64,000 nucleotides of DNA from positions 124,001-188,000 of the forward strand of contig MU004181.1 of NCBI GenBank assembly GCA_010093605.1. Reading direction: 5' to 3'. Numbering within the stretch: position 1 is the stretch's first letter; every line of letters begins with the position of its first letter. This document shows positions 9,996 through 55,149 of the stretch, in pieces. Below the pieces are notes generated by a model that made no database searches, was not told the DNA's origin, and saw only the letters and a program-made list of their open reading frames with translations. The DNA comes from Lophium mytilinum. Its lineage: Eukaryota. Made by a program: the position numbers and the translations under genes.

Positions 9996-10049
9996 CGAAG
10001 CGTAGTACACCGAGACTGTAGTTAGAAATGATATTATATGTCTCTGAAA

Positions 10050-22300: not shown

Positions 22301-24889
22301 GGAGAGCGCTGTTCTTTGCTTGCCAACGTGTTCTTTGTATAACACCCAGCGCGCTTTAATATGTGGGGCCTGCTGTTCAGCGATGGCTTAAGGGAAAAAG
22401 TCTTGAAAATCAGAGACTTGCTCTTGCGTGGGTGCCGAATAGGACTTTAACGGATGAGTGCAGGGCCGGGGAGAGCTATGCGAACAAATCCGTGGCACAT
22501 ATAGAGCTGGGAGGTCTGCTATGGTATTGTACTGTAGCTGTTTGCCCGACGGCAATTGCTGAGCGAATGGTGGTCACGAAGATGCTTGGCATTAGCGAAT
22601 TGAGCGACCAGGAACGTGAAGCCATGTCCGGGGCTCAGAAACGCCAGGACGATAGATGACCTTTCTCTTCCGTGCACGCAACGCTTTGGTCGTCGTAAGA
22701 GAATGTGCCTGAGTCAAAAATCCAGGTATGATGCTAGACCTGGCTTCCACAACCAAAGCTCATCAGGTCGCAAACTTTATACTAAGCCGAAGATGAATGA
22801 GAGGCGCCGCTGAAGAGGCTTAGCCGATGCAAAGGAATCCAGTTTTCAAGGCTTTACGGCGTTGCTTGTAGGTGTTTCTTGTTGTGAGATAGTAGGCGTG
22901 TTGTAGGTCAGGCCAGGCCCAAGGCATCCGTGTGTCCGAACTAGGCAATGGGATGCTGCAATACGGCTACGTAATGATGAACATCCGATGAGTAGGGAGG
23001 ATGAGTATCCAGGAATTAAGGCTGAAGAGGGTCTAGTAAGTAGGGCCGACAAGTTTCCAGACACTGAGGAGGAGAAAAGACCGACAACAGGGCTACCTAG
23101 GGACGGGGAAGAGGGGATTGCAGTGTTGGCAAGAGGTGTTGTGTAGGGATTCGACATGGAGGAGGGCTCGAGGGAATGACGTTTACGAAATCCGACCAGG
23201 TTCATAATATCAAGCCTATGCCTCTCTGCGCTAAGTCGAAGGACGATCCTGAAAACCCAGTAACACACGACAGCCTCCTGCATAGGCGCCAGCGTGATCT
23301 TCCTCTTTAACACCTTGGCCACCGCGAGCGGGAGTATGTTGATGTCGACAATCGTGCGTAAGGATGGAAAGGCTGAGCGATGAGCACATGGTAAAGGTTG
23401 GCTTCGAGGAGGAACGCTCTCCCAGGTGATGCCGATGCTGCATTCCAGGGGGCAACGAGCTATATAAGGAACAGACTGATGGGGACGCTAGCAAAGTCTT
23501 CTTGTAGGATGCAAGGGAGCTGGAGTCGCATCTTTGGAGCTTTCCCGTGAGTACTGTGCTCGCGGCCTGGCGGCTGGTGTTGTGGGCGTGACAGCTGCAC
23601 AGTCCATTGACGGCAGTCAAGCCGGCAAGTAGTAGATTCGAGATGAACTACACATCGGCGGAAGTAGAAGATGAGTAGAAACCAGCATCTCTGTGGTATC
23701 ATTGGAAGGCTTTGGACGGCTGCGAGCTGGTCGGCCAGTGCTGGAGGCCCGGCGCCCAGTCTACTGCCACCCTGCCAACCCCAGCGACGCCATCGTCAAA
23801 ACAAGCCACGCAATTTGGGCGAGGACAGCGGCGCGCACCGTCCACGCTCGCACTAATCAAGAGGGGGCCGCGTGGCAATTGGGGAAGGCAAACGCAGGAT
23901 GTATCCAGAAGCAGCTGGCGTGAACGCTTCAGACAGCAGCGCACCCACGATGGGTGGGCCTAACGGCGCTCTCCCGAGCAGGAACTTGCCATCCTTGCGA
24001 AAAGTTGCCGGCCAGTTCCTCACGAGCTCGTGGACTGTGATGTCGCCGGTGACGAGCAAGGCTAGCAGCTTGTCTATGTGCCAATCGCCGAGTTGTACCC
24101 GCCGAGGGGGTAGATGCGTTCGGTCAATCGGGCAGTAGAACAGGTACAAGGCGAGATCGTATTCCGCCGGGGGAATGGGTTTGGCGGGATGGGCCCGACG
24201 CCGTTCTTCAATTTAGGGCGGGATAACGCGGTCAGGTGGAGGGCCAATTTACCAGTGACCTGCTCAACTCGAAGAAGATTGAGGAGCTCGCCGCCAAAGA
24301 TGAGGCTGCCGAGAGCTCGGCGATGTGGTCAAGTCTGGGTGGTGGAGAAAGCAATAGGTTTGAAGTCGAAAGCTTCACGGAGACCGCGGGAGCTGTAGAC
24401 AGGGCGTCGATGCGGCGGCTTGTGGTGCTGCGGTGTGAGCAGAGGTAGGCAAAGATGCTGTTCGAGGTACTGCTGTCGAACGATGAGCTGCTGGAAATAC
24501 TAACCTATTTCTTCATGCGCTTCATAAGATTTACAGACAAAATGTTGATGAGTGATCTTGCTCCTAGGACACGTAACAAGCGAGCACCAATTAGAGCCTG
24601 CTAGGTAGGCTTTAGGGGGCTCGAGGGGTGCTGCAAGCAGTTACTAGAACGTCGGGCTAGTGGAGCAACTGAGGCTGACGATCAAGCCGGCGTGCCCGGG
24701 AAGTGCACTGCTACCCGAGACATTCGGGCCGGTAGGACGGGAGCTGCAGACGAGGCGGTGGACTCGAATCCCGCCTAGCTGTGAGTGCCCTTCGGCATGA
24801 CTACACGGGAAGGTGTGCGCATCAGGTACCCCAGACCCGGACGGCCCTATTCTCTAACTATATATTTGCTATAAGTTAGAATGTTTCTC

Positions 24890-25027
24890 GCCCTCACCTG
24901 TTCACGGTGAGGGTGGTTGTGAACATCGCTAATATCTATCATAGCATATAACAACGGAACCCGGGTTCGACCCCCGTGGAAGGCGTGATTACCTCCTTTG
25001 AGTCCTTAGGAGGAAAACATCTTTTTT
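24890..25027 (+). ncRNA. Putative Pol III small RNA, unrecognised family, copy 1
   Basis: TATATAT at 24859 (-31). Hairpin GCCCTCACC-TGTTCAC-GGTGAGGGT, then TGGTTGTGAAC, then GCTAAT..TAG (ends 24944). B box GGTTCGACCCC at 24964, GAGTCCTTAGGAGG, T6 at 25022-25027. Confidence 0.7.
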
Positions 25028-26929
25028 GCATTTTGGAGTCTTCTGGGCTGGCTTGTTTTTCGCAAAGGGCCGCGTGCTGGGGTATGGCAAAGTGAGGGTT
25101 ATGAAAACGTTTTCGGAGAGGGTCATGGGTGCGTATTGCTCTTTTTATTAAGTTAATGAAGGGTTTACCCGTTGCGGCCAATCTTTTGAAGAAGTATTTA
25201 TAGTAAACATGGTCATCAGTAATAGCATAAGATGAAGCACCTCCCACAGCATGCCAGGAATCCGTTATCTACAACTATCTTTTCGCGAACGATATAGCCC
25301 CAACCAAGCTTACACCGGAACATGCTTCCTGTACCTCCAAAGCCTCTGAGCTAGCTATATATATGAGCCAGAAACTGACTCCGGCCCCGATACCAGATTG
25401 GAAACAGCAAAGAGAATGGAGACTGACATCGCTGCAGACGCCAATAACACATAGCGAATCGGTGTTGCTCTGTTCGGAGTACGAGACGACGTCTGCCGTG
25501 TGGGTTGCAGCGGAGACTTTGCTGAGCGGGACGTTGTCGTCTAGAATAGCAACTGTGATGTTGTAATCCTCCCAGATGACGGCGACTTTGATAGTCTTTC
25601 CAGCCACGGGAAGGAAGTAGCTGGAGTCGTCTCACTCTAGACTGCCCTGACGATGTGGTTTCGATGGCAGACGGTCATCGAGGAAGGCGGTCGTACTGGG
25701 GTAATCTCCGTAGGGGCTCGAAATAGAAACTATCCGCAGAGGACGTGTCTTTGACCGGCCGCCGCGTGAAGGCATTTAGCCCGCCGCGTAAAGGCATTTA
25801 GCCCTCGTTGCCCGTGGTATCGATCCTTTCCTGCAAACTAGGTCTCTCCTTTTTCTCTCTATGGATGGGTGTTGCCACGTGCTAGCATATAGTTACGAGC
25901 GAGAAGAGAACACAATCTTCTTGACTGACTCCTCCGGCGAACGTCTTCGATGGGCGCTTCACGAATATAGACCCAGGGATCGATCCAGCAGGAGCAATTG
26001 TCATGGCACCGAAGGAAAAAGGAGACGGTGGTCCACCACTATGTATGCGGTTTGGGCACCAAGAACTCATGCGGCTTCCCTTTCTCCTTCGGATCCAAAG
26101 TTCATGGTCAACAGAAGTGAGAGCTCTTTCGTCTTGACCGGCTTAGTGACGTACGAGTTGAACCCAGCCAGCACAAAGCAATTGCCTCTATGCCTCACGT
26201 TCAGATATGACACGTTTGGTATTCTGAACACAGAGCTGGCGGTCTTGGACCAAGGTCCTCGGAGTTTCGAAAAGGACTTGGGCGGCACGGAGGACGGCAT
26301 TGAGTGTCCTCGAAAGCAGGAGGAAGAAGGCGACAATGACCACATAACGTAGTCCTCATGGCTTAGTCGATGAAAGAAGTCGGTTATGCCCTTTTGTCCT
26401 TCGCTGGTATGGCACGTTTCGGATCGATCTAGTGGACCAGTCAGCATGATTTATAAGAACCTAGACAGTTTGGGCTCTCACAATCTTGCCGTCAAGACAG
26501 TGCGCCGTCACTATTAGGGCGTTGACACACTCAGTACACCGAGAACCATTTCTCTCCAAAGTTTTATGGCCAGGCCGAAAAATGTGCTGAACGCGAGCGA
26601 TCATACGAACTTGACTTCGGAAATGCAGACAGTGACCTGCGTCTGGCCAAGGAAGGCAGATTCTGACCAGCGAAGCAGAAGGGCTGCACGGTATGCTGCC
26701 TACTCGAGAAAATCAGGGCTCCGGCGCCGGAGAAAGGGAAGGTTCTGTAGCTCGCGACGGACGACGCAGGTGATTCGAGGACGACCTATGGCAGGTCCGT
26801 TGTCGGATGCGTGGCCGGCGAAAATCTTCGAAGCGTACTCTGACATTGCATTATCTAGCCGGGACTCGCTAGATCCACTTGCCAGTGGGCACTTAACGCC
26901 CAAAGGCGCTTCTTTCGTCCCGGTGTGTG

Positions 26930-27120
26930 TCGTCAAAAGCTCCTCTTGATCCCCGCTCTCCCGAGCACAGGCCTCCTCAAGACGGGTCGAAGAAGCCGCC
27001 TCTCACGTTCTGCCGCTGCTGGATCAGAGCTGCCAGATCGCCCAATCCATCGTCTATCGATGCGGTCGCCCCCTTCTTCTTAGCCTGGTCATCTTCCACC
27101 TCGTGCGCATCCTTCCCCAG
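26930..27120 (-). pseudogene. Fragment resembling the C-terminus of DNAJC9-like J-proteins
   Basis: DDGLGDLAALIQQRQNVRGGFFD[frameshift]RLEE resembles the LAALIQQRQ..R..FFD.LE motif of fungal DNAJC9-type proteins. No J-domain (HPD) was found nearby. Confidence 0.5.
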
Positions 27121-27343
27121 ACTTCTGTTGGATAGGAAGTAGCTTTGGCGGCATCTGTAACATCCTATTGAACTTCGAGCATTGTGATGGAACCGGACTG
27201 AGAAGGAAGGAGTAGCAGGACGTAGGGTCTGATCGTGTGGGGGCAAACCTTGCGGCTGCGAGGAGATTTTGTGCCCGGTAGGGAGCTTGTCGTGACGAGA
27301 GTATCCTTCACATGGCCAAGTGCTGCTTCGTCCCTGGATGTCG

Positions 27344-28860
27344 TCAGTCAGCTAAGCGAAAGACTTTAGACGCAGGTGTGAACATACGTCGGCGGTCCCG
27401 CGGCGACGGCGAGCAGTGGGCGGAGATAGTAAGCAGATGCGCCATCGGATATGGTTGGTATGGGACCCCACTCTGGGGATGAATCAGCGCATATTGAGCG
27501 GCCATGATGGCGTTCTGAGCATCGTAGAGAGCGTCTAGAGTAGATTGAACTGTGACCGCGGGCGGGCGTCTGCAGTCCATATAGGAAGTCATTGGCGGGG
27601 CAAACGACTGCTGCGAAATCGGGATTGCGCGAGCTAGGGTAACGTGGCAGAGGTTGAACTGGAGCGTTGTGACCTTCTTGACGACGCTACTGCTTTTCGC
27701 CGTGTTCTGGGTACACACGTGCGCGTTCGTAGGCGTTTTCCTTCTGTCGCACTTCGAGATCTTGCTCATCTCTTAAGAGCTGCGAGTGTTTGACTTCCAA
27801 GGCGTCGAGCTGGCTTTGCAGATGTTTCGCCTCTTCTATAGCGTCGGCCTCCATGTTGAGCGCTAGGAGGCGGTCATAAGATGGTGGGGGCGGTGATGGA
27901 GCAGACTGGACGGGGAGATAATTGCGCCAGCTGGACTCTTCAACTACGGTGGTGTTGCTAGAGTCATCGGTGCGGACGAGGGAGCTGATGCGACGAACGA
28001 CGGGAGAGCTGGTACTGCATCGGGTGCGGACAGGGAACAGTCGTCACACGATAGAGGCAGAGATGGAGCGTTGTGATCTTCGTAACCATGTCACTGCTTT
28101 CGCCGTGTCCTGGGTACAGGTGGTCATAGGACGGCGGAGGCGGCGATGGAGCAGACAGGAGCGGTAGAAAGTTGCGCCAGCTGGGCTCGCCAACTGCGGT
28201 GGCATTGCTAGAGTCAGCCTCGGTGCGTAGCGGGACCCGCATCCTGCGAGAGAAAATGATCGCAGACCTCAGATGTGCACTTCGAGAAATCGTCTACGAG
28301 CTTGTTGTCATCATACACGTTCGACATCATACTCAAAGTCCCCGGCGCATTGCCAAGCCGCTTCTCCAAGACTTCCGTTCGAGTTTCGGGTTTTACGCCT
28401 TGGGCAGTGATCTTGCGAGCTCGAATCCAGGCTGTTAGATCTCATTACCGACTCAATTGCGAGGAAGTCAACATTCCCTCATAAGCGGTGCATATCCTGA
28501 GATTCCCTATGTAAGATTTCTTGGAGTGTGCTGGTCGCAGTTTGACACATCTGAATCCGCTCTGGAAGAGATCGATAATGCGAGGGATGAGGCAGCTGAT
28601 GTGACGAGCGACGGGAAGACTGGTATAATCAAAGTGCCAGGAGAGCTGCGGCGAGCGTGACGCGGGGTTTGTACCATAGTCTTTCGCGCGGTAGATCTTC
28701 CCAGGACGGGAGTTGACAGCGGGAGAAGCGAGCTTGGACATGAAGATTTCGTCGGTGGGTGGAACGTCTGGCGGACTGAGGGACGTGGCCCAGGTAGGTG
28801 TTGGAAAGGCAGAAGAAGTACGTTGCATTTGTTGGGGAGAAAGGTGGTATCCAGCCATGA
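27344..28860 (-). pseudogene. Fragmented unknown gene with internal duplications
   Basis: Several short minus-strand ORFs. Duplicated segments 27661-27715 ~ 28065-28118 and 27868-27975 ~ 28119-28227. Confidence 0.3.
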
Positions 28861-29898
28861 TGGAAGCAAGCAGGTAGGGCGTTTAGTGTGGGTTGAGAAG
28901 GACGCAAGTGACGCTGAGCGCGCAAGCGTTGCGCATCGGCCGTGAGCCTGTTCGATATATAATCCATGGCCGGGAGGGGATATAGACCGTAATGGGAGAC
29001 ATCTAATCCAGTGCTGTTCTAGGGGCGACTTGATAGCTAGGTATGTTGACCATCGTGGGAGCTTCGAAGCTGCGCCGATTCGCAATAACTATCGTAGCAG
29101 GAAGCTGTTGGCGGGAGTTCTTCATGCGGCGGCCATGATGCTTCGACGAGTATGCGCTCTGGGTCCGTCGACGGCGAGGGGCGAGGCTGGCATGGGGAGC
29201 CAGGGCTTCAGGCTGCTCCAGAGTCGACTGTTCCTTACAGGGCGGAGGAGGAGGATTCTGCTTCGGCCGGTTTACGACCACTCGTGGGGCAGGCGAGCTA
29301 CTCTGGAGACATTCGCGCGGCTGTCAATAGAGGACGCTCGCGCGGCGGTTAGGGTGTCGATGGCGTGGTTCTACGAGAGAGATCGAAGACGAGGGTATCG
29401 CAGCTGGTGATGGAGGTACGGCGAATAGTGAAGGTGTTGTTTCGAGTGGGGTGTAAAGTTTGCGGAGGAGCAGGTCAAAGCAAAATGTGTGACGTAGCTT
29501 GTAGGAGACCCTCGCCAGAGCCGAGAAGTGCGTCTGCAAAGTGTAGCTAAGAGCATAGTGGGGGGTCATTGCTAGAACTGTCAGGCTTGAGGTCGGAGAC
29601 ATAGACGGGCAACTGCTAGGTATGGTGAAGGTGTACCGCAAGAAATAAATGCGTTGAGGGCTTTAATGGTGGAGAGCGGCCACAGGGTCCATCTCGGAGA
29701 CGTTTCCTGAACCTCATCGTCGGCAGTGCAGCCGCAGGGTCTCAAAAGAGCCACAAATATCTACAAGACAGTAGGAGTAGCCTTGCGAGACACTCTCAAA
29801 TCCCCTAGGTGACCGTAGGCAAAAATGAAAGCCCACTGCCGCCAACAGAGCGAACACAAGTACATATAAATAGACCCCCAAAGCAAAAGAAGAAGTCT

Positions 29899-29971
29899 TA
29901 GCGCAAGAAGGACTCGAACCCCCATCTTCCTCTGCCAGCAGAGGATATGTTTCCATTCACACCATTGCGCC
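29899..29971 (-). tRNA. tRNA-like gene (73 nt) with non-canonical 8-nt anticodon loop; no amino-acid assignment
   Basis: GGCGCAA TG GTGT-GAATGGAA-ACAT A TCCTC-TGCTGGCA-GAGGA AGAT GGGGG-TTCGAGT-CCTTC TTGCGCT A, with a T-run downstream at 29885-29888. Confidence 0.7.
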
Positions 29972-30240
29972 TTGTGATTGATTTTGAGATTTGCTCAAAA
30001 TAAAAACATTACCTACCCTAGCAGATCGAGACCCAGATAGGCAGATAGCAAGAATAAGTGGCAGAGCGGGCCCACCCTATCACTCCACGTCACGGCCACT
30101 GCCTCACGCCAGTGGTCGGCTCACGATGTGCATCTTTTTGCATCCTTTTCCGCGTTTTGCAGCTCAACGCCCACACCACGGGGTGTTGCACTTCAAGAAT
30201 TAGCCTGCGGGTATCTCACAGTAGTACTGCAAGCATGAAC

Positions 30241-30303
30241 AAAAAAGATTAGTCGATGTTCTCGACGACTTCTACGTAAATAGAAGTCGTCGAGAATATC
30301 GAC
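30241..30303 (-). ncRNA. 23-bp hairpin in the 3' trailer of the tRNA-like gene, followed by a T6 terminator
   Basis: Arms 30252-30274 and 30281-30303 are 22/23 complementary around a 6-nt loop. The hairpin starts 2 nt after the discriminator. A6 on the + strand at 30241-30246. Confidence 0.7.
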
Positions 30304-30305
30304 GA

Positions 30306-30381
30306 TGGCGAGGCACGGAATCGAGCCATGGGCTCTGATGCTAGAGACTAGATCTGCGTGTTACTACTACACCACATCGCC
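30306..30381 (-). tRNA. tRNA-like gene (76 nt) with aberrant 12-nt anticodon loop
   Basis: GGCGATG TG GTGT-AGTAGTA-ACAC G CAGAT-CTAGTCTCTAGC-ATCAG AGCC CATGG-CTCGATT-CCGTG CCTCGCC A. One acceptor-stem mismatch; T54 is replaced by C. Confidence 0.65.
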
Positions 30382-35085: not shown

Positions 35086-36264
35086 AAGAACACTACGGGC
35101 TCAATCAGAGGCCACCGGACTCCGCCTTCTCGCCGTTATCAAGAGACTCTTTCTCGAAATCTCGAGAGAACAGCGAATCGTAGTCATACCCGTCCGTCGT
35201 CCATGCTGTCCATTCCCTGCGCCAAACCAGTGCTAACACTCGCTTCCAGGGCGCACTTCTCGCACTGATGATCCTCTTCGAACGCCGTTTCGGGTAGGTC
35301 TCCCTGGCGGTGGATGAGAAACGCAGGAAGATTGTCATGTCCACCGCCCAAATTTCTCGTCAAGTTCGGGAAGCGGTACGCAGCTGCAGGCGATGGTTAG
35401 CCCATTTGGAGCATCTACCGTGGTGCTCCCTGTGCCTATGGTAGTAGATGGTGCCAGGCGCCTAGTGCTCGATCGAGTTCGGTAGGTTGGGCCCATCTAA
35501 CGATTTCGCTGGCAGGTACGAAAATGGTTGAGAAAGCACGATTTCCAGCCTCGTCAAGTGAACTCACCTCGACGGTGTACATCCTGGGTACTGGAAAGGC
35601 AGCTGGGCGTGTGCTGTCGTCGATGCGTGCGCGCAGGTCTCAGCCGATGGGAGAATACCAAAAGGGAGCATATACGAACCGGCGCGTGTTGTTGGATGTA
35701 CCGTAGGCTGACGGATTGGGTATAGCGGAGGGCAACCTGGGCATTAGACTATCATGGCGTGCTTCTGTGGCGTCCGGCGTCTGAGTATATGAGAGACAAC
35801 TGGTAGAGGATTGACCGCCCTGAGGAGAAAAGGGGCCATATGTTTGCAAGAAGGGGTTGTCGGAGACGGGGAATGCTGCGAGTAGCGCTCCATCTTGGTG
35901 CTTCTGAATTAGCATGGTTTGCTCCCGCGAGGTGATTGCTCTCAGTCGCCCACACTGTCAGACTGGGCCCATCCCCGGCTTGGTGGGCTGCTTTGCGCGC
36001 CATTACTGGAAGCTGTGCTGCCAAATCGACCAGCGCAAAGGGTGGTCGCGGCGGCGTTGAGGAAAAGATTCCTGATCAGCGCAATGCAGCCTTCCTTACG
36101 GATGGATGCTTTATGGGTATGTGGAATTGAAGAGGGGCGCATTGGCGGGAGCATCGAGCGGCGAGCGAAGCCAATGAGCACCTCCGCCGTGGCTCCTTCG
36201 CTCCGCCTTCACGTGACGTTCGATCCTAGAACCGAGATAGGCGGAAATGATGATTATTGGGCAG

Positions 36265-37110
36265 CATTTGCATTTGGGTCACAATGTGAGCTTGCAGTGA
36301 CGACGTGTATGTCTATGCGCACCTTTTGCCGCTGCTAGGGGTGCCCCCATAGCTTTTCCATAATAAAGAAGCCACGTCTTGTTCCATATCGTGAAACTTG
36401 AACTGCCTTTTGACTAGCTAGCTCTCTAGTTTCTAGGGCACTCCTGACGGTGGTATCTAGCTTCCGAAAGGGATGCGAAAGGAATTGGGCTTCAAGGCTA
36501 GAAAAATGTTTGTCCGAAAGCATTTGCATATGGGTCACAATGGGAGCTTCTAGCGATATTCCATCGGTTTCTGCACACCTTTTACTCCTGCTAGAAGTGT
36601 CCCTTTAGCTTTTTAATAATCTAGAAACCATGTTCTGTTCTACACAGTAGACTCTAGGCTGCCTTTTGACAGGCTAGCTTTCTAGTCGCTAGGTACTCCT
36701 GACGGTGGTGTTTAGCATCTAAAGGTGATGCTAAAGGGATGGGACTTGGGCGCTTAGATCCACGGCGTTGAATTTGCTGCTGATAGAAGTACTACTATAG
36801 CTTTTCCAAAATCTGGAAGCTATGTCCTGTTTCATACAGTGGAATTTGGACTGCCTTTTGACTGGGTAGCTTTCAGGTCGCCAGGGTACTGCTGACAGTG
36901 GCGTCTAGCTTCCAAAGTGGATACGCAAGGAGTGTGACTGGGATGCATAGATCTACGGCCTTGAATTAGCTGCTGCCAGAAGTGCCCCCATAGCTTTTCC
37001 AAAATCTACACACCATGTCATGTTCTATACCGTGGAATCTGCACAGCCTCTTGCCTAGCTAGCTTTCTATCCACCAGGGTGCTCCTGACAGTGGTATTTG
37101 GCTTCCAAAC
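36265..37110. repeat. Degenerate tandem repeat, 4 copies (spacings ~255, 193, 192 bp)
   Basis: TAGCTTTT..AA, CTGCCTTTTGAC..GCTAGCT and AGGG(C/T)ACTCCTGAC(G/A)GTGG-like motifs recur at ~36440, 36695, 36890 and 37082. Confidence 0.85.
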
Positions 37111-37446
37111 GTGATGCTCAAGAAGTCATATTCGTGTGCGTGGAGTGTAAAGTCACGCATTCAAGGGGGCATCGCTGCCTGCATGTTGGAGGTGTGGGCA
37201 TATGGTGCCCTCAAGCGCCTTTTTTGATGAAGAAGGAGATATACAGAAGAACGCCACTCTCACTGACATACCCACATCTTTCCGATACTACTAGTGATCT
37301 CACAATCCTTCCTTACGGCACAAACAGCCCGCAGAACCGCTTCCATCCCCACATCCTACAGGCTACTCCAACTTCCCCTAGTCAGACCGACATAACTTCC
37401 AGTAGTACGGGAACGATGGAGGGGAACAAGCGGCTCGTTGTTGCGC

Positions 37447-41409: not shown

Positions 41410-41531
41410 AAAAAAATGTTTTCCTCGTAAGGACTCTAGGCGAATACCGCCTGCTCGGGACTCGAACCCAGCATGTTCCTATGATGATTGTCAGCATGTT
41501 TCATTACCACCCTCACCACCGGGGTGAGGGC
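41410..41531 (-). ncRNA. Putative Pol III small RNA, unrecognised family, copy 2
   Basis: TATATAT at 41562 (-31). GCCCTCACC-CCGGT-GGTGAGGGT, TGGTAATGAAAC, GCTGAC..TAG (41479), GGTTCGAGTCC, GAGTCCTTACGAGGAAAACA, T7. Confidence 0.7.
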
Positions 41532-42213
41532 GGGGTACAGTTCGAACTGTAGGAAATATATAGCTAAGGTCAGGGCCGAGCCCCTCCTCCCCATTTCCCC
41601 CCCACGGCATTTTAACTAGTACTACCACAACCCGCAGAGCTCCTAGGCTAAGCTTGCTTTCTCAGCGAGTTGAGTCTTCGCCCTGCGCCAGGGGTGCCCC
41701 GCCCATAGGGAAAATAAGAAGCTATTGGCGAATTTTGCGCCTGCGAGCCGCAGGGCCCTGCCACCTGTGCCACCAGCCGCCACGCAACACTACCCTCCCG
41801 AACTGAATGTTCTACTTTGGCCGCGGCCTCCTTATGCACTGTGCTTTCTTCGTCCCCCATACTCCTTGGCAGGGCGTCTTCCTCAAGGGCGCCATCACGC
41901 AGCCGTTGTCACCAAAAGCTGTGCCCCATCGGGTTGTTTGGCTGGAGCGTCTTCGCCTCCTACCTGCACGCCCTGTACGGCTACACATGTGTCACTCATG
42001 TTAGGTCAATGGAGAATCATCCAGCGCCGTCTGTCTACGCTCATCATCCTCTAGAAATCTTCAACCCAGGCTACAGCTTCTGGCATCACAAACGCGACCT
42101 CGCCCGCTCCATCCCTCCAGCACTACAAACAACCATCGCTTTCCATATTCCTCTACTCTCTCTACTCTTCCACGAATCCGTCAACCCAGCGCCCCCTCCA
42201 TCCCTCGCATCCA

Positions 42214-44819: not shown

Positions 44820-45245
44820 GGTGTAGGGAAGGGAGGACGGTGGGTTCCAGAAGTGATAGGAAGTTGAACAGCACACGCTTTAAGGTTGGATTATTACAGG
44901 TCGTTTTATGCGAACAACGAACAAAAACGGTGAATCTGGATGCAGTGAAAGCGCAGTCCCTTAGCAATGGACCAAATATTGTACTGTCTCATAGCATCCT
45001 ATTGTCCACATCCTCACCACATTGAGCCACTTCAACCCGTCATACCTGAATAGCAACATGAGTCTCTCTCACTCACAGTATCAAACTTCACCCTATTCAA
45101 TCACGCTCTAGATTGTTCTCTACCTTCACTCTTGATTCCACAATCTACGCTTTATAAATCTGTCCCCCCCGACCATCTCTTTGACAAGCAGCGACCGACA
45201 TTTCCACAACCTCAACAAACCAAACAACCCATCAAAACCAGCACC

Positions 45246-46908: not shown

Positions 46909-47590
46909 GCGCGACAACGGTACTCTTCGATATCTATCGACCAGGAGCCTGAGGTGACTGGAATGAAGAGTCTGATAGTGAACATCGCGATGATAGCCGT
47001 GATAGGGAGCGCGCCCTTAGCTTCGAACTGACGTTTCGGCAACAGGGATGGAGGGATTCTTTTTCGAGATGTCAAGTAGACCTTCGAATCTATCAACGTC
47101 ATGGGAACATTGCACTTGATCCAGTCTGGTCTGAAGAGTGATGTCTTCTTGATCTAATGCTTCGTTATAGGCTGCGTGAGTGGCTTCAGAGCATTCCAAG
47201 CATTGCGAATGTGATAGAGCTCCAGCATTTTGGACAGCCGCCTCCGGATTGAACGCCCAACTCTGAGGCGATGCCACTTATTACACTCTAACGGAAATGA
47301 GTCTTAAATTGTGGATTCAGCGGCACTCACTAGGTGTCCGGGGCAGAACCGCTTGTATATTTACTTCACATTTCATCTAGTTCAGGACATTAATGGAAGA
47401 AGCTGATACAGCCGCAGACAAACGCACACCGCAATCTACCTAGGCGAGGTTCACAGACCGAGCGCAAGAAACTAGAGTTCACCGTATTTCGGAAGTACGT
47501 GAAAAGATCTCTGATGTCATACAGAACTGTAAGCCCAGCCTAACAACAAAGCTAGTGCCGAGTTACCAACTTCCATTACTAGAAGATCCC

Positions 47591-48898
47591 TCAATCTGCA
47601 TTCACCTCCGCGAGACGCTTATCCATATACATGAGATGCCTCAAGTTCTCTTCGCCAAAAGCACATAGACGATCAACGAGGCCCTCCATAATCCCGATCG
47701 CGCAAACGAGCTTGGTCCGCTCTCTCCAATTCAGCGTGCTACTGAAATATCCCGAGTGATACTCGGTAATATCCTTTATTTCCTTCTCGCTGAGGGGTTT
47801 GATCTCTGAATTGCCCAACAGGAAATGGCGCCGGATGCTCTCCTCATGCTTGTCGAACGCTTGAAGGAAGTTGGCGCAGAACTCATACGTGATGTTTTTC
47901 CTGCCACACTTCTGGCGCAACTTAGTGAAGAAGTCGCCCGATGTGTCAACCGTGTAGTTGATGTAAGCGTGTGTATGGTGCTGGAATCCCCCCTTCTGCT
48001 TCGAGATCTGAAAATGTTCCGAGGTAAGTCCTCCAATCCCAATGCGTCGAATATTCGAGTTGTCGTAGAATAGTGTCGGATCCAACAAACCCTCGAGACT
48101 TCGGAAGAAGAACGAGCGGATGTCCCCATATCGGCTGGAAAGAGAGAGCTTTTCCAAACGTCGTGTTGCAATGTCCCAATCGTCGACATCGAAGCAATGC
48201 GAACGTAGGAAAGATCTGGAGAGCTCGTATAGCTCCTTGTTGACCATGGTGATGGCCATATAGGTGCTAATGGAACGAACATCATGGCTGTGTGAAGCTT
48301 CCATGATTCTGTTCGAGCCGTCTCTATGAGGCGCGGCCTGCCAAAGCTCACTTACGGTCTGCCCCTTCCCGAAGGCACGTTCCAGGCACTCTAACTTCAA
48401 CTCGATTAGAAGGCCCAAGAAGTTTCGAGTTGGCTGCCACCCTGGAACTGCCACTCTGGGGAGCAGAAGCGTCAATAGGTTGGATTTTGTCGACGGGACC
48501 TTTGGAACACGGCCAGAGGAAGTGGGCGATCGATAGCAAGGCTTGGGGGCGGACTCGGAGTCATCTTCCCCGGATGTCTTTTCGTCTGCATTGTCATCGG
48601 ACTCCTTCTCGGCAAGGGCCGCCAGCTTTTGCTCCAACGTCTGGATGAGCGCTGCAGACTTCCGGATCTTCTTCACTTGCTTAGACGCTCGCTTATCATC
48701 TCCATCTGCTCCTCGGCCGTCGAGCAATATGACAGATTTAGCAGGGGAAGATTCGCTGTCATCCGGCATACTGGGACTCTGTGTACGCTTGGTGATCGCC
48801 ACCCCCACCTCATGCACACGTTTCCGCTCGCGGTTTAACTGCTTCTGCAATGCTTGCGCTGTCTCTCGACCCTTGCATTTCTTTTAATTCTTTGCCAT
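47591..48898 (-). CDS. Family B protein; probable ATG 48898 is followed by TAA at codon 5 (pseudogene or downstream start)
   Basis: FLGLLIELKLECLERAFG, APH.DGSNRIM...HS.D...ISTYM..., F.ANF...HEE..RRH.LL..S.IKPL are shared with the other family B members. Confidence 0.7.
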
Positions 48899-49382
48899 AC
48901 TTGGTGGGACCAGAGCTGCTGGGTAGGATGTTGAAGCTGGTGGTGGGTCGGTGTGACGGATTAGTGGGGTGGGGGTGTGGGTGTGGGAGCAAGTTGATCT
49001 AAGGAGCATGATCGAAGAAGGAAGATATAGATAGTTCGTCTGTCCGCGTGCGATTGATTGCATGATTCACCAGAATGATCCGTTGAAACCGTGAATTTCT
49101 GGGCTTCCTTGCCTTAATGCGCCTTCTGAGTAGTTGGGAATGAGTCCCCCCCCGCGAGTCTCCAGCTATCTTGGCAGTAAACCATTCGTTTTCACGACAT
49201 GGCAATTATAGAGCTGGGAAATAGCACAGTTGGTTTATTTGGACTTCTATCTCTTGATCATTCAAAGACATGCTACCTGGGGCACCCCTGACAGTGAAGT
49301 CGGATGAGCAAGGGGAAACCCCGTTCAATCTCCGCTTAAATCATGGTGACGGCCAGAGACCTCCTCAGCGGGTTTGGCCTCT

Positions 49383-50822
49383 TCACACCGAGTCGGGCTC
49401 GTCCAGGTGCTCCTGCAAAGCATCCAGAGATGCCCATTCAGCTTCAATTCTTTCTCTAAAGGTATCCAAAGCTTCCGGATCAGCGGTCTCATCTTGAAGT
49501 TGACTTTGCAAGCTCTTAATCTCTGTCCTCGTTAGCTGTATGATCTCCCCCAAACTTTGCTTCTCTCTCTCAGCAACAGCAGCTCGGAACTGTTTAATTA
49601 ACTCCAGTTCAATCACGCTGATATCCGCATCTTCCAGGGGTTTGATCTCCGAATTACCAAGAAGATATTGCCTTCTCACGCCCTCTTCGTGCCGGCTGAA
49701 TACGGCGTTGAAGTTGGCGAGAAAGTCCAGCTTGAGGGCACGCTATCCAAGAGATATGCGGCAGTCGACAAGGGCCTCGCCCAAAAGTTCCACGGTCTGT
49801 GCGATATATAGTTCCGTGATCTGACGAAAGTGGCCTTCCGGGTTGCTGATGTGATACGTATCCGCAGGCATGTTGCCAATCGCGATCCGCTTAAGATTCC
49901 GATTGCTACGCAACACCGCTGCGCCAAGAGTTCCACGTAACGTGCGGAAGAACACGTTGTGCACGTCCTGATTCCTACCAGATGCGGTCAACTTTGCGAA
50001 GAAGCCGCGTAGCGATGTCTGCGTCTTCGAAGTCCATTGCGAGGCCTCGGAGAAAGGATCGGGACATCTCGTAGAACTCGGGGCTTACGAGGGCGATGGC
50101 CATGTAGTTGCTGATGTACCTATTGTCGACGGTATGGTACGCTGCCATCACCCGGTTGGATCCGTCAGACATGTTATGGCCGCCTCGCCAAAACATGGCT
50201 ACAGTGCCCGTCTTCCCGTATGCACGTTCCAAGATCTCGAGTTTCATCTCTATGGGCAGGTCGTTGAACTCCCTTGCCTGCTCTCGGTGTGAGAGTTTGG
50301 TTCGGGGCAAGATGAGGGTAACTTGCGAGGTCTTCGGGGAGGTGGGCTCCATCGAAGCTGGAATGTATGGTAATTCTTCATCTGCGTCCAGCCTAGCATG
50401 CATATTGAAGCTGAGTTTGGAGCTCAGGCCTCGTAGGTCCGAGAGCTGTCGGGCACCAGCTTCTCCTTCCACACTCTCGTGCGCGGCGAAGGGCGATTCC
50501 ACAGACTGATTAGGGATACATTGTGTCGGATCCACCAGTGCTAGACTTTCCATCTTGCCTTCGACCTTTCGGAGAGTCAACGTGTGCACACGATCCTGGA
50601 CTCTCCGGAGGCTCCGATCGAGCTTACGCTCTCGTCTCAGACGCTTTGCAGCTCCGCGATCGGTGATATCTGCTATAAATAAGTCAGCGGATACATCAAC
50701 AGACTACGACGCGAATGTTTACCTTTCTCCAGGCCCTTGCGCGTTGCGGTGCTGGATCTTGCAGCACGAAGTATCCTCAGCTGCGCTTCGCACTCTTTCA
50801 TCGTTCGACGCTTCGCCATCAT
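49383..50822 (-). pseudogene. Family B paralogue with one intron (50722-50673), a frameshift (~49992) and a TAG (49743-49745)
   Basis: GTAAAC..GCTGAC..TAG intron keeps the frame. FNDLPIEMKLEILERAYG. ORFs 49975..50589, 49743..49991 and 49383..49679 are colinear with the 47591 paralogue. Confidence 0.8.
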
Positions 50823-51511
50823 GAACAATGCTTTCGGACACGTGTAAGATGAGTCAGTTGGACTTTTGAGTGATTGGTGTGGTGGTGTGGTAGATCAGTG
50901 ATTGGGACTGGTGATTTGCAAATTTCGGTGGAAGATGAAGATTTATAAAGCCATAGGGATGCGCCGCATTCATTGCCTGGCATCGCCCCGGCGCTTTGAG
51001 ACACATGATTTCGTCCAAGCAGTGACTTGTGGCTTTCATCATGCTTCTAATATTATAAGCGTAGTTGCATCCAGCGATAGCATGATGTATAGCTTCGTTT
51101 TCAAAAGGTCGCCCTTTCGATAATGTGGCGGAATTGCAATAGGGTTATTTCCAGAGGACTAAATCTGCTCCAACGTCAATGTGAGCGTATCGGAAGGATA
51201 GATTCGGAAGAGTAGGGGCCATTGGGAGTAAAATTCATAGCGCCATGCTTGCGTGTGTCACACATGCAGAGTTTGCAGAAGGAATCTACCCCGAAAAGTT
51301 TGTACCACGATCAGCTCGCAAGCAGCCAACTTTGCATCTATTTCTGGCGATGTAGAAAAAGCTTCAATCCGCTTCTGGCAGTATTGCGTGGCTAGGATAA
51401 ATAGACAGAGCTTAATGGAACACGCCCTCTCCAAAATTGAGAGATAGCCCCTATCCAGGCAGCCTTACGTAGTGAGCACCGGCCTGACACCCACACTCAT
51501 CATGCAGAAGC

Positions 51512-51651
51512 AAAAAGAAACTGCCTCGTAAGGTCTTGAGAGCCGAGGGGCTCGAACCCAACTCCCCGTTGTGCAATGGAGGCTGATTCAATGAGAGCCT
51601 AGTAACCTGTTAGCGATGTTCTTAACCACCCTCACCACCGCGGGTGAGGGC
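51512..51651 (-). ncRNA. Putative Pol III small RNA, unrecognised family, copy 3
   Basis: TATATAT at 51682 (-31). GCCCTCACC-CGCGGT-GGTGAGGGT, TGGTTAAGAAC, GCTAAC..TAG (51599), GGTTCGAGCCC, CCTTACGAGG, T5. Confidence 0.7.
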
Positions 51652-54020
51652 GAAAGACGGTCGAACTTACAGCAGATATATAGGCGAAGATTGAGTGCAC
51701 ACTAGCCTCGGGTCTTCACCTCGGGTCTCCACGCATTTAAGCCTGCGCAACCCCACTTCACTCTACTAAGAGTCTATGCCACAATGAAGCCTACGTCTCG
51801 GTCAAGGCTTAGTAGAAATGTCGTAGTTTCATCACCTCGTATTCTGGTATTTTTAGATCGACGAGCCAGAAGCTGGCCCCTCTCCCCCTGCTGTACTATA
51901 TGATATAGTATGTAATTTCGCATTATGTAGGTAAGCTTGTTCCTCGCTACAGCTAGTATGGCCTACTACAAGAAACATCTTGCTCACATTTTAGTATTTT
52001 AAACACAGAGAGCAAGCCGATCATGTATTTATACTTTCAGTTCATCACACAGTAGCTATAGCCAATTCAAGAGGTTGAGCATGATACCACGACTTGGTCT
52101 TCTTAAAATCCCGACGTTGGGCTATCTACCGTTTTGCCCGCCATATACAAGAGTATGTTTGCTCCAGACTCTGGAGCATGGCTGGATTGGATCCGGATGC
52201 GTTACATGTACTAAGATTAATTCGAAACACTCATATGGAACGGAGAGGATTTCATCGATACATCCTAATTCATACTCCGTAGCTTCAACCTCCGCCTTCA
52301 TATCCCCGTGCAAGCGCTCGACTTCCAGCAGCTCACTGTTTCACTTATCCCCCCGCCCTCTTGCCGACATATAAAGAGTGCCCAGCGCATGAGCTCCTGC
52401 CGTGACTGTTCGTCAGATACCGGCACTCCATCTAGCACATGATGAATTTTCCACCTACGTCGAGTCGCTGCCTTCTCAATGCCTCCGGGCACGCCTTGAA
52501 CCTCGGCCATGCGCTCAGTAGACTGTGGCAGCATCTCCTTCGGCGCCACCATGCGAGCGCTTGAGACGCCCTGAATCTGCTTGATCTTGAGGCCCTGGCC
52601 GATGAGCCAAATCTTCGAGCTCCGCGGCGAGTTTGCTCCATATGTAGAATGAGCCCTCAGACCCAACAGGCCCTTTCCTCAGCGGTGGTAGTGTTCGATG
52701 GTGGCTCGGAGGCCAAGTATCGGAACGGCTCGACGGGGTGTCGTTGGACGCAATGTTTACGTCTCGGTTGTCTCGAAGGGCGACGTCTTCGTTTTTGAAA
52801 GTCAGGGCCGCGGTCCTCGCTGTAGTAGGGTTCTCAGACCCTTCTATAATCTTGTCTTTGCACTGTCTGTCCTACATGATGTGCTTAAAGGCCCTGATCT
52901 GGGCAGCGTGGTTGTCGCTCGTGCTTGGCGTCCTCGGCCAGTACTCGGCGATGCGGCCGCATGGTTGAAGCTGTCGCACCTAGGGGATGAGGACCTTATG
53001 CCGTGATCGGAGAGCAGAGTCTGCTTCGCGTGCTTTGGGGTACTGGGGACCGCTCGCGCGAGGCTCTTCTGCTTTGCGTCGGCGACCTGTGCCTTCTGAG
53101 CGGGTGTGAGGGCTGCCTCGTCGAGCGTGAGGCAGAGAGACGGATTGACCTGTATGTGCTCCTCTGGCTTCCGGACGACCGCTACGTGGCGTGGATTATC
53201 CGAGGCCGTAAACGAAATCGCTTGCTTCGTGAGGTGGGCGTTTCCGCGTATGTAACTTGAATCAGCGTCTTGCGCAGTAATGTTACGTCCGATGGGATCG
53301 TTTCCAGAACAGCCACGGGCCGGCTCTGTATTCGGACTCTGCCGGGAAACTCAGCCGCTGGGTCCTGCCTACATCTACGGCGACTGGTATCTTCTGGCCA
53401 CGGATCTCGCCAAGCTCTCTTCTGGTCATGTGCATCTACAGCATCTGTTAGCGATTGTGAAGAGTGGTAGAGACTTCAGGAATTTTACCGTCATCCTCCG
53501 CATTGCTAGGGCCATCCACGCTTGAGACCCAAGCTGGAGCAGGTTGCAGCTGCTCCCGATCCTCACAATCGGCCGTCTGGCGTTTATCAGTTGCGGCTAT
53601 ACTTGTATCCAATGCTGTGCTTGACTAGATTTGTGTTGGCACTAGTGCGAGTGGCGTGCCGAATTTGGTGTGTTTGGGATAATGAGGTAGCGACGGTGAT
53701 GGAGATTGGCGATCGTAGTGGAGCGCTTCGGCGGCGGAAAGACACTATATTTGGAACTGAAGAATGACAGCAGACCGTGGGTGGGGTCCTAACGTGGGCG
53801 GGCACGGTAGGCAAAATAGAAGAGGGCCCCGCTGCCTCAGTGACCGGCAGACCGGTGCCCCCTCTCGAGGGCTTAGTGACGGGCGGGTGGCTCAAGAAAG
53901 CCTCAAAAGAAGGCCGACGCGGAGAAGAACTCAAGAGAGCCAAAAGAAAGGTTATTTAGTTATTAGATCAAGATCTATAGCGACTATTACAAGAGATGTT
54001 AAAAATAAATCAAAAAGATT

Positions 54021-54123
54021 AAAAAAAGACTGGGACTCGAACCCAGGCCCATAGGCGAAGTCAAGAAACTAGTAAGCTGTTAGCACTGTTTCATGACCAC
54101 CCTCACCGTGAACAGGTGAGGGC
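54021..54123 (-). ncRNA. Putative Pol III small RNA, unrecognised family, copy 4 (lacks the 3' module)
   Basis: TATATA at 54154 (-31). GCCCTCACC-TGTTCAC-GGTGAGGGT, TGGTCATGAAAC, GCTAAC..TAG (54069), CTGGG-TTCGAGT-CCCAG stem-loop, T7. Confidence 0.7.
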
Positions 54124-55149
54124 GAAAGACGGTCGAACTTATTGCTGTTATATAGCCTAGTTGAACGACAAGTCCGTGCGGGGTACGACTTTACTTGCGG
54201 GAGCGGGCTGCCCAGGGAACGCCAGCGCGGACTTGCCCCGAGAGCTAGGCGGCCTACAGTAACGACTTCACCATACTCGTCCTATTCTACAGCAGTGAGT
54301 TACACGTCTTCTATCTTTGCTAACACGAAGCAGCACTTGACTGTATTGGCACTGTGATTGTACACAGGCGGCGAATACGGCTCCTCTAAATCTGAAGTAG
54401 ACGCACGCACAGTACACACTAGGTTAAATTCTGGATCTTTGGTATCTGCGATGAGATTCTCCCTGCACCGTGCATTTTTGTCCCATAAGGTCTCGCTTTT
54501 GAATTTTCGGCGGAAAGTATGATCCGTACGCGTCTAATTTAAGAGAGTCGCTGTATGCTCAAAGACCCTCTGTGTATACTTGACTTCGTGGAGTAACGAA
54601 TACATATTGCCATCCTATCACGCGACTTTTGATGATTCTTTATCAATTGTCAAGTCGATATCCACGTTTGCTCATTGTGAGGGTTCAAGTTATAGATGCA
54701 CTCTATTCGCGGCAAGCTGGACCTTCTGCAAGGCTACATATAATGGAGGATCACAGCGGTTGAGAAATGTTTAGATCAGAGACACCTTCCACTTGCATCA
54801 TCGAAAAATGATGCGATATCAGAGTTTTAGGAAGTGCATCTCCGAGGATCCTTAGGATTGTTTGGCAAGAAATTACGATTACGTATCGTCTATGAAGCTA
54901 TCAGGATTCTTAATGTCCATTACGAAGATTGAGAGGCTGGCCCCCCGCTAGACTAGGGGAACATTGTCCCACTCAAGACTGCACAACCAAGTGTAAGCTC
55001 GTTGTCAATTTACGGACCCCACTTAGCCGACCGCTAGCTGAAAAAGTCTGTACCCCTCCACTGCTTCCATCGCGTGCCCGGGAAACTGAAGCTGGCGGCG
55101 TTCTTCCTCTACAATCACACGCTCCCGAGCGTCTAGTAGGTCCTGAAAC

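Follow-up and report, generated by a model that had tools for sequence, protein, structure and literature searches.

A four-copy family of candidate Pol III small-RNA genes in Lophium mytilinum with the appearance of remodelled tRNA genes

The window, a 64-kb stretch of DNA analysed as a whole, contains four copies of a small gene that look like remodelled tRNA genes in which the Pol III signals and one invariant hairpin have been kept. On balance, and with moderate confidence, we favour their assignment to a lineage-specific family of Pol III small-RNA genes that derive from a tRNA gene and have lost its cloverleaf. By direct reading, the copies are c1 (24890, forward strand), c2 (41531), c3 (51651) and c4 (54123; all three on the reverse strand), and all four lie within 30 kb. 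A preliminary description of this DNA had credited four copies with TATATA, a 9-bp hairpin, TGGTnnnGAA, a B box and a run of five to seven T, and the reading bore this out. Counted from +1 through the first T run, c1 to c4 have predicted lengths of 138, 122, 140 and 103 nt, respectively, in agreement with the 103–140 nt given there. The pattern GCCCTCACC-N4–9-GGTGAGGGT matched four times in the window and not once in 100 shuffles. A covariance model built on the 5′ block, a search suggested in the same description, recovered only c1–c4 as strong matches in the 64-kb window, at 92–105 bits. At E ≤ 10, this search returned 10 matches; the six beyond c1–c4 scored ≤21 bits, and four of these were hairpins echoed on the reverse strand. 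As had been expected, Rfam yielded no match for c1–c4 at either the gathering thresholds or E ≤ 10. No relative of the family was found outside the window, and the comparison therefore comprises only four sequences, with zero compensatory changes in the hairpin.

Conservation among the copies is arranged in blocks. TATATA starts at −31 in all four copies, within an invariant CTATATA (7/7 columns) located at 24858..24864 on the forward strand in c1 and at 41557..41563, 51677..51683 and 54149..54155 on the reverse strand in c2, c3 and c4, respectively. The spacer between the TATA box and the hairpin is invariant at 7 of 25 columns; in c2, its AGTTCGA motif is moved by 1 nt with respect to the other copies, the total spacing being kept. 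According to reading, pattern search and folding, a 9-bp hairpin stands at +1 in each copy: GCCCTCACC-TGTTCAC-GGTGAGGGT in c1 (+1 to +25; 24890..24914, forward) and its counterparts with loops CCGGT in c2 (41509..41531), CGCGGT in c3 (51628..51651) and TGTTCAC in c4 (54099..54123; all reverse). Both arms and GGT are invariant (21/21 columns; hypergeometric P = 2.6 × 10−9). The loop is invariant at none of seven columns and ranges from 5 to 7 nt, and the region from +24 to +55 is invariant at 9 of 28 columns. Since the loop varies in length while the arms are fixed, an RNA hairpin fits better than a dimeric DNA-binding site. The RNA may be the selected product. Whole-RNA folding was better than that of shuffles for c4 (z −4.3; 0/200) and weakly so for c1 (z −2.0; 6/200); no excess stability over shuffles was detected for c2 (31/200) or c3 (77/200).

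Behind the hairpin, TGGTnnnGAA begins at +23 to +25 in all four copies. This element had been described as an A box; the motif is present, but only its first four bases, TGGT, fit the tRNA A-box consensus. The A-like box is TGGTTGTGAA in c1, TGGTAATGAA in c2, TGGTTAAGAA in c3 and TGGTCATGAA in c4, followed by GCTAAT at +39, GCTGAC at +37, GCTAAC at +38 and GCTAAC at +40 and by a YAG that ends at +55, +53, +53 and +55, respectively (24914..24944, forward; 41479..41509, 51599..51628 and 54069..54099, reverse). The set of spliceosomal-intron-like signals G/GTGAGG, GCTRAY and YAG is complete in 4/4 copies, with would-be introns of 38, 38, 37 and 38 nt in c1 to c4. Between the YAG and the B box lie 18, 9, 39 and 24 nt, respectively, corresponding to the variable middle of 9–39 nt noted previously.

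Exact matches to GGTTCGAnnCC start at +75, +64, +94 and +81 in c1 to c4, 41–70 nt from the A-like box. A search of the 64 kb found five such B boxes: GGTTCGACCCC in c1, set in a T-arm-like hairpin (24964..24974, forward), GGTTCGAGTCC in both c2 (41458..41468) and c4 (54033..54043), GGTTCGAGCCC in c3 (51548..51558; all reverse) and one in a tRNA-like gene. In c4, the B box lies in a perfect 5-bp T-arm hairpin. Otherwise, the T-arm stem is poorly kept, with 3 bp and an internal loop in c3 and bulges in c1 and c2 according to reading and folds, so the B box may be conserved as DNA only. The 3′ module CCTTA(C/G)GAGG, claimed for three copies, was indeed found in c1 (CCTTAGGAGG; 25004..25013, forward), c2 and c3 (CCTTACGAGG; 41423..41432 and 51524..51533, reverse); c4 is without it and has T7 directly behind the T arm. 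The first run of at least four T is found at +133 in c1 (T6), +116 in c2 (T7), +136 in c3 (T5) and +97 in c4 (T7), with none earlier, and in 4/4 copies homology ends at a T5–7 run that has another T run closely behind it. The predicted terminators are thus located at 25022..25034 in c1 (T6, GCA, T4; forward) and, on the reverse strand, at 41410..41416 in c2 (T7, then a second T4), 51512..51516 in c3 (T5) and 54021..54027 in c4 (T7, with two more T5 runs behind). Overall, the TATA box at a fixed 31 nt, the exact B box and the T run at the end of homology support the Pol III-style layout proposed earlier. According to the available part of the report on Neurospora (PMC3547838), recruitment of Pol III at a non-tRNA small-RNA gene needs a TATA-like element, a filamentous-ascomycete precedent that supports the Pol III reading of c1–c4.

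Sequence comparison further ties the family to a tRNA-like gene of low score located among the copies (29899..29971, reverse; Rfam tRNA, 37.7 bits; anticodon loop of 8 nt). This gene is kin to the copies and possibly ancestral to them, the similarity lying in the T arm and, more weakly, in the trailer and terminator. The relationship is new, and it leaves unsupported the independence from tRNA implied previously: c2 and the tRNA-like gene are equal at 22 of 26 aligned columns (z 6.1; 0/300 shuffles). The alignment runs from the 3′ strand of the anticodon stem through the T arm, equivalent to the c2 B box and the 14 nt before it, and in the 12 nt that precede the T stem, 10 are the same in both; the B box part could be convergent. 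The T arm, the old 3′ acceptor strand and an AAGAC trailer align in c3 (12/300 shuffles), for c1 the alignment covers trailer, terminator and the flank behind them (5/300 shuffles), and the c4 alignment consists of the B box alone. In a five-way alignment, the matching pieces occur in the same order in the copies and the tRNA-like gene. Like nuclear tRNA genes, and this tRNA-like gene in particular, the copies have a TGGT at the A-box position and a B box/T loop, which in c2 and c4 is identical to that of the gene (GGTTCGAGTCC); the gene, too, ends in an oligo-T terminator. By contrast, it does not have the canonical TATA at −31 present in the four copies. These differ from tRNA genes in having no cloverleaf, a lost or degenerate 3′ acceptor strand and a new 5′ arm that gives rise to a terminal hairpin. 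Similarity of the 5′ part (acceptor/D arm) to tRNA-like genes was not significant by itself (across eight comparisons, the score was equalled or exceeded by no fewer than 65 of 500 shuffles), so the equation of the hairpin 3′ arm with the old acceptor strand is one of position only. ARAGORN called a tRNA in 0/4 copies, and c1–c4 had no Rfam tRNA match even at E ≤ 10. By these sequence features, the predicted RNA is not a decoding tRNA. The cluster holds two low-scoring tRNA-like genes in all.

We propose that the four paralogous Pol III-type units descend from a tRNA or tRNA-like gene and multiplied locally as DNA. The TATA box 31 bp upstream would position TBP/TFIIIB, with TFIIIC on the exact B box assisting and the A-like TGGT box being degenerate. 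Pol III would start at the G of GCCCTCACC and stop at the first T5–7 run, the T run behind serving as a back-up, to produce RNAs of about 103–140 nt. By its position, the old acceptor 5′ strand may be the hairpin 3′ arm, pairing at present with a complement newly gained upstream, and the resulting 9-bp hairpin would close the 5′ end of the RNA. The likely working part is this hairpin together with the ∼30 nt of UGGUnnnGAA(A)CAnnGCURAY-n7–8-YAG. The linker, the B-box/T-arm hairpin, the optional CCUUAsGAGG hairpin and the U tail would act mainly in transcription, termination and, probably, La binding.

Homology among the copies starts at the TATA box and, in c1–c3, continues beyond the terminator; none was found past about +145. 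Target-site duplications were found in 0/4 copies, and the longest flank repeats, of 4–6 nt, were equalled by 120–479 of 500 shuffles. The copies thus share the 31 nt before the predicted start as well as post-terminator sequence, both of which would be missing from an RNA copy, and, with no target-site duplications, they spread as DNA and not as a SINE. The rejection of a SINE in the preliminary description therefore stands, on stronger grounds. A SINE, or another tRNA-derived element copied by retroposition, would account for the tRNA-related origin with B box and T run, and low-copy, tRNA-related SINE-like elements occur in Aspergillus fumigatus according to the available text of PMC5063351. 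However, c1–c4 also have no A-rich or LINE-like tail and are clustered within 30 kb, and we consider retroposition highly improbable. Duplications and orphan genes abound in this region, where 28 of 29 ORFs have no Pfam family. Kinship among the copies is mosaic: c1 and c4 have the same loop, c3 and c4 agree at 88% in the spacer, and c1 and c2 agree at 77% in the 3′ part. Exchange between copies thus occurs and could mimic some of the constraint. The units might then be relics with functionless RNA, pseudogene-like and tRNA-derived, multiplied by local DNA duplication, their blocks being kept by gene conversion or as a TFIIIB/TFIIIC-bound chromatin element and any RNA being a by-product. The abundance of local duplications and orphan ORFs, the mosaic relationships, the pair of low-scoring tRNA-like genes, the poorly kept T-arm stems and the c2 and c3 folds are consistent with such relics. 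Nevertheless, a conversion tract would have to take exactly both 9-nt arms and GGT and skip the 5–7-nt loop in every pair. Moreover, the TATA-to-hairpin spacing is kept despite the motif shift in c2, c4 retains a terminator at a new position, and a DNA-only role leaves unexplained why the inverted repeat is invariant while its loop varies in length. We regard relics as unlikely, if still credible.

The remaining alternatives concern the product of transcription. The S. pombe U6 gene carries an mRNA-type spliceosomal intron, and transcripts of c1–c4 might hold a real intron of this kind or mimic splice signals, with G/GUGAGG in the hairpin 3′ arm, GCURAY as the branch site and YAG 11–12 nt past the branch A. 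All three signals occur in every copy, the GCTAAT, GCTGAC and GCTAAC variants are all within the CTRAY degeneracy of fungal branch sites, and in most pairs alignable conservation ends at the YAG. By contrast, the signals were noticed post hoc, a length of 37–38 nt barely reaches, or falls short of, the usual minimum for introns of filamentous ascomycetes, the 9-bp stem would enclose the 5′ splice site, and a signal-based scan of the window, in which intron sizes were uncalibrated, found no enrichment over shuffles. In addition, the c2 TAG belongs to the segment matched to the 3′ strand of the anticodon stem in the tRNA-like gene, and GCTGAC of c2 looks by eye like the GCTGGC loop of that gene; tRNA ancestry could therefore explain both. 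Splicing or its mimicry is, in our view, doubtful. Even less probable are Pol II units, in which the TATA promoter and a short first exon and intron would belong to a longer RNA, each copy perhaps being the leader of a downstream ORF. Although all four copies have the intron-like signals and a same-strand ORF about 670–800 bp downstream, these ORFs have no evident mutual similarity (translations read by eye) and no Pfam family, inter-copy homology does not reach them, and Pol II leaders would not be expected to contain an exact B box, to have T runs where homology ends or to be akin to a tRNA T arm and terminator. Finally, Cyanidioschyzon has circularly permuted tRNA genes. Genes of this type would give a mature tRNA after circularisation and loop processing, the 5′ arm being the 3′ acceptor strand. 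The topology fits, in that the 5′ arm pairs with the would-be 5′ acceptor strand, with the T arm placed at the 3′ end, and at lowered thresholds ARAGORN assigned a cloverleaf to two of 48 constructs rotated in silico. The other 46, including all those of c2 and c3, gave no call, and the two calls are discordant (Tyr-ATA with a 15-nt intron versus Cys-ACA) and require a 3-bp D stem and mismatched anticodon stems. Permutation is thus largely refuted and scarcely plausible.

As putative remodelled tRNA genes, the four copies share features with several known systems. The yeast U6 gene has a TATA box near −30, a 5′ stem-loop, A and B blocks and a T-run; the copies resemble it in the upstream TATA and B box, the hairpin at +1, the UGGU...GAAAC stretch behind it and the oligo-T end. 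Unlike U6, they have no ACAGAGA or AGC-triad context and their B box is internal, upstream of the terminator. The U6 comparison made earlier was not supported by Rfam, in which c1–c4 had no U6 match at the gathering thresholds or even at E ≤ 10. Rodent BC1 RNA is a lineage-specific, non-decoding small RNA derived from a tRNA gene, with internal promoter boxes kept and a 5′ hairpin domain in place of a cloverleaf, as proposed here. It differs in belonging to another kingdom with no sequence relation, whereas the present family is predicted from sequence and numbers four paralogues, diverged from one another and each with a TATA at a fixed distance upstream. Among filamentous ascomycetes, the available text on AfuSINE2 of A. 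fumigatus describes a low-copy, tRNA-related element with degenerate A and B boxes, an oligo-T tract, no cloverleaf and sizes from 140 nt (PMC5063351). The low copy number, tRNA relationship, oligo-T tract and missing cloverleaf are shared with the four copies. AfuSINE2 has target-site duplications of 4–14 bp and a tRNA-unrelated 3′ region, whereas the four copies have no duplications, share an upstream promoter and have an invariant hairpin; the word TATA does not occur in the available text of that paper (PMC5063351). Neurospora milR-1 and milR-4 are non-tRNA small RNAs made by Pol III and ending at a T cluster, milR-1 using a TATA-like element and milR-4 a tRNA module (PMC3547838, available part). 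These features are reminiscent of c1–c4, but the milRNA precursors have long Dicer-type stems as opposed to a stem of 9 bp (PMC3547838, same part). Elsewhere in the window, 30241–30381 combines a tRNA-like gene with a 23-bp hairpin and is far closer to milR-4, as described in that part of PMC3547838, than the four-copy family is.

Four copies of the candidate small-RNA gene occur in the 64 kb, clustered within 30 kb at 24890(+), 41531(−), 51651(−) and 54123(−), and are referred to as c1 to c4, respectively. TATATA, a 5′ hairpin, the A-like box TGGTnnnGAA, a B box and a T5–7 run were read directly in each copy, as the preliminary description had reported them. The hairpin pattern, GCCCTCACC-N4-9-GGTGAGGGT, matched four times in the window and not at all in 100 shuffles. 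TATATA starts at −31 from the hairpin in 4/4 copies, and transcription would start at the first base of the hairpin, here numbered +1. The A-like box begins at +23 to +25. The A box consensus is TRGCNNAGTGG, located ∼20 nt past the start; the A-like box matches only its TRGY and lacks the GG. The B box, GGTTCGANNCC, is exact in all four copies at +64 to +94. Only five exact B boxes were found in the 64 kb, the fifth lying in a tRNA-like gene at 29899–29971(−). In every copy, the earliest T run of length ≥4 is a T5–7 run at +97 to +136, and the lack of an earlier T4 is not significant by itself against a background of 2.65 runs per kb of strand. In c1, c2 and c3, the T run is preceded by a 3′ module, CCTTA(C/G)GAGG; c4 lacks this module and has a T7 directly 3′ of its T-arm hairpin. 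All copies therefore share a TATA ∼30 bp upstream, an internal B box and an oligo-T terminator, elements of a hybrid type 2/3 Pol III layout. A covariance model built on the stretch between the TATA and +55, the kind of check proposed beforehand, recovered exactly c1 to c4 within the window at 92–105 bits. At E ≤ 10, this model gave 10 matches; the six besides c1 to c4 scored ≤21 bits, four of them being reverse-strand echoes of the hairpins. On sequence grounds, the four-copy family is a well-formed prediction.

Conservation among the copies is confined to blocks. From its start at the TATA box, homology has faded by +43 to +55 in most pairs. Its onset is at approximately −31 in five of the six pairs and at approximately −47 for c1 and c2; c2 and c4 are alignable only from +15. 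The B box forms a separate island of similarity, and only c1 and c2 could be aligned end to end. In the aligned 5′ block, invariant columns make up 7/7 of CTATATA and 21/21 of the two stem arms plus GGT, 0/7 of the loop, 7/25 of the TATA-to-start spacer and 9/28 of the stretch from +24 to +55. The hypergeometric probability of the 21 invariant stem columns is 2.6 × 10⁻⁹. In c2, the spacer motif is displaced by 1 nt with respect to the other copies, yet the overall TATA-to-hairpin spacing is kept. The loop varies from 5 to 7 nt between fixed arms, a variation that an RNA hairpin would tolerate better than a dimeric DNA site. The c2 spacer also contains a perfect 14-nt palindrome, ACAGTTCGAACTGT (41535–41552(−)), found in this copy only; its AGTTCGA core, which c3 and c4 also have, looks like a B-box core set upstream of the start.

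Kinship among the copies is mosaic: c1 and c4 have the same loop, c3 and c4 are 88% identical in the spacer, and c1 and c2 are 77% identical in the 3′ part, so the copies do undergo some exchange. It is nevertheless improbable that, for every pair, a conversion tract took in both arms and spared the loop, and we therefore read the blocked conservation as purifying selection, acting on sequence or on pairing. No compensatory changes were found in the hairpin among the four copies. The 5′ hairpin was the only element predicted in all four folds. As whole molecules, c4 folded better than its shuffles (0/200) and c1 weakly so (6/200), while c2 (31/200) and c3 (77/200) folded no better than theirs. 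Because the 5′ hairpin alone is common to the four folds and the whole folds of c2 and c3 are unremarkable, the hairpin and the stretch behind it are likely the working part of the predicted RNA, and the role of the 3′ half would lie mainly in transcription and termination.

From these elements, we infer Pol III transcription and the following mode of action. The TATA at −31 would position TFIIIB, and TFIIIC would bind the exact B box, the A-like box being degenerate. The predicted Pol III start is the initial G of GCCC, which opens GCCCUCACC; the first T run would terminate the transcript, and another T run downstream would serve as a back-up. The resulting RNA would be 103–140 nt long, its 5′ end closed by the 9-bp hairpin. 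Approximately 30 nt of conserved sequence would follow, then a freely varying linker of 9–39 nt, the B-box hairpin and a U tail with, optionally, a small CCU-UAsG-AGG hairpin between these last two. [quoted passage not shown]

The copies were compared with known RNA classes. As had been anticipated, Rfam named no family on them, with the gathering thresholds applied or, per copy, at E ≤ 10; the matches at E ≤ 10 were chance-level ones and one of the c4 T-arm hairpin to the tmRNA model, in its T arm. The likeness to yeast U6 drawn in the preliminary description was not supported: the copies contain no ACAGAGA box or AGC-triad context and gave no Rfam U6 match, whether the gathering thresholds or E ≤ 10 were applied. 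The reported absence of a cloverleaf was borne out, and a decoding-type tRNA was discarded, by ARAGORN, which called 0/4 copies with introns allowed, and by Rfam, which gave no tRNA match at E ≤ 10. A circularly permuted tRNA was considered because the 5′ arm could stand in for the missing 3′ acceptor strand. Only 2/48 in-silico rotations were called, at lowered ARAGORN thresholds; the two calls disagreed in identity and had poor stems, and neither came from c2 or c3. The permuted-tRNA reading was rejected on this test.

SINE insertion, which had been disfavoured from the outset, was likewise rejected. Homology does not begin at the predicted start, the 31 nt upstream of it being common to the copies, and target-site duplications were found in 0/4: the longest flank repeats were 4–6 nt and were equalled by 120–479 of 500 shuffles. 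Copies c1 to c3 also share GC(A)TTTTG beyond the first T run, in DNA outside the predicted transcript. A same-strand ORF lies 670–800 bp downstream of each copy. The idea that the copies are leaders of a duplicated protein gene was set aside, as these ORFs have no Pfam family and no evident likeness to one another, judged by reading their translations alone.

To examine relatedness to tRNA genes, local alignments of the copies to the tRNA-like gene at 29899–29971(−), which lies among them, were scored against shuffled controls. This gene scores 37.7 bits against the Rfam tRNA model and has an 8-nt anticodon loop, UGCUGGCA, in which ARAGORN reads a 4-base anticodon, CTGG. A G1-U72 pair is also present, the T stem contains two G-U pairs, and the gene may represent a pseudogene, an atypical tRNA or the ancestor-like relative of the four-copy family. 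The alignment of c2 to this gene starts in the 3′ strand of its anticodon stem, crosses the variable loop and takes in the T arm, with 22 identities in 26 columns (0/300 shuffles, z 6.1). The c3 match covered the T arm, the old 3′ acceptor strand and an AAGAC trailer (12/300 shuffles); that of c1, the trailer, the terminator and the flank behind it (5/300); and that of c4, the 12-nt B box only (5/300). In a five-way alignment, the shared pieces occurred in the same order. The 5′ region (acceptor and D arm), where TGGTGTGAA faces TGGT(T)GTGAA, was not significant alone: in eight comparisons of this region with the tRNA-like genes, the observed score was reached by at least 65 of 500 shuffles. 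The B-box portion of the c2 match could be convergent. Overall, these data suggest that the family probably derives from a tRNA gene. Judging by position, the 3′ arm of the hairpin may be the former 5′ acceptor strand, now pairing with a new upstream complement. We rate the family, on its sequence, as belonging with tRNA-derived Pol III small-RNA genes. Of the earlier interpretation, the Pol III-type, unnamed and non-SINE character thus stood, but the implied lack of kinship with tRNA did not, given the 22/26 identical columns between c2 and the tRNA-like gene.

The copies show a further regularity. By motif match only, all three spliceosomal signals occur in order in 4/4 copies: G|GTGAGG, which sits within the 3′ arm of the hairpin, GCTRAY, and a YAG 11–12 nt beyond the would-be branch A. 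The would-be introns of c1 to c4 are 38, 38, 37 and 38 nt long, respectively. Alignable conservation stops at the YAG in most pairs, as a real intron or a splice-signal mimic might have it. However, the TAG of c2 falls in the stretch aligned to the 3′ side of the anticodon stem in the tRNA-like gene, and its GCTGAC resembles, by eye, the GCTGGC of that gene's loop, such that the signals could equally be a residue of the tRNA anticodon region. The pattern was, moreover, spotted post hoc, and 37–38 nt is at or under the usual fungal intron minimum. An intron-signal scan of the window yielded candidates not above shuffles and no calibration of intron sizes. We therefore consider an intron or a mimic very unlikely. 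The fuller reading is similarly improbable: re-wired tRNA genes, with a loop-closed 5′ hairpin in place of the open acceptor stem, whose Pol III transcripts would each bear all of the spliceosomal signals at constrained length, the invariant hairpin enclosing the 5′ splice site, and which would form a spliced family or engage or decoy U1/U2.

Relatives were also sought beyond the window. A metagenome scan for the hairpin plus GGT returned nine loci, mostly GC-rich coding DNA, with no family member among them; prokaryote genomes searched for the hairpin plus A-like box gave three loci, none a member; and viral contigs gave no match. A run bearing the same species label (X1) contributed only two short pieces of 90–95% identity in unrelated places, neither on the copies. 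A search for predicted RNA targets within the window gave 82 HSPs, those outside the family being 10–15 nt with E ≥ 0.19. No description of the family was found in the literature among the matches listed. The nearest described fungal class is AfuSINE2, which is low-copy and tRNA-related; it has target-site duplications, whereas the four-copy family has none, and the word TATA is absent from the text of the paper on it (PMC5063351). If expressed, the copies would constitute a lineage-specific small-RNA family of a filamentous ascomycete, named by no current RNA library. They would also provide a clear case of a tRNA gene turned to another RNA, in which the cloverleaf was lost, the Pol III signals were retained, and an upstream TATA and terminal hairpin were acquired. 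Such promoters are also of practical use for guide-RNA expression in fungi.

Other tRNA-type sequences occur in the window. A second tRNA-like gene, at 30306–30381(−), was missed by the whole-window Rfam scan; it scores 34.4 bits against the Rfam tRNA model, over the gathering score of 29, and carries 10 inserted nt at the anticodon loop. Three nt past it lies a 23-bp near-perfect hairpin (30252–30303), followed after 5 nt by a T6 (30241–30246). The unit as a whole (30241–30381(−)) folds at z −5.9 (0/200 shuffles), and no targets of the hairpin arms were found within the window. Its layout matches that of Pol III precursors in which a hairpin adjoins a tRNA and RNase Z makes the cut, Neurospora milR-4 being one example (PMC3547838). 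This unit suggests that parts of tRNAs are repeatedly assembled into new Pol III small-RNA genes in this region. In addition, a near-consensus B box, GATTCGAGTCC, lies at 24750–24780(−) inside a GGCGG...CCGCC inverted repeat, ∼90 nt upstream of the c1 TATA and on the strand opposite to it. ARAGORN called no tRNA at this site, which may hold another decayed relic of tRNA type.

Five tandem paralogous ORFs of 382–546 aa, without a Pfam family, occupy 5200–14800(+) and have conserved blocks of 168 nt and 50 nt in common (repeat families D1 and D6). A Pfam family was missing for 28 of the 29 ORFs scanned, the exception being a short-chain dehydrogenase fragment at 18783–19511(−). Tandem arrays at 10174–10722 and 36239–37124, with periods of ∼163 nt and ∼193 nt, respectively, are inverted relatives of one another (repeat families D2–D5, I4 and I11) and share the core CCACTGTCAGGGGTAGCC. 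According to a protein atlas, the longest ORF of the window falls among Ascomycota-only protein clusters.
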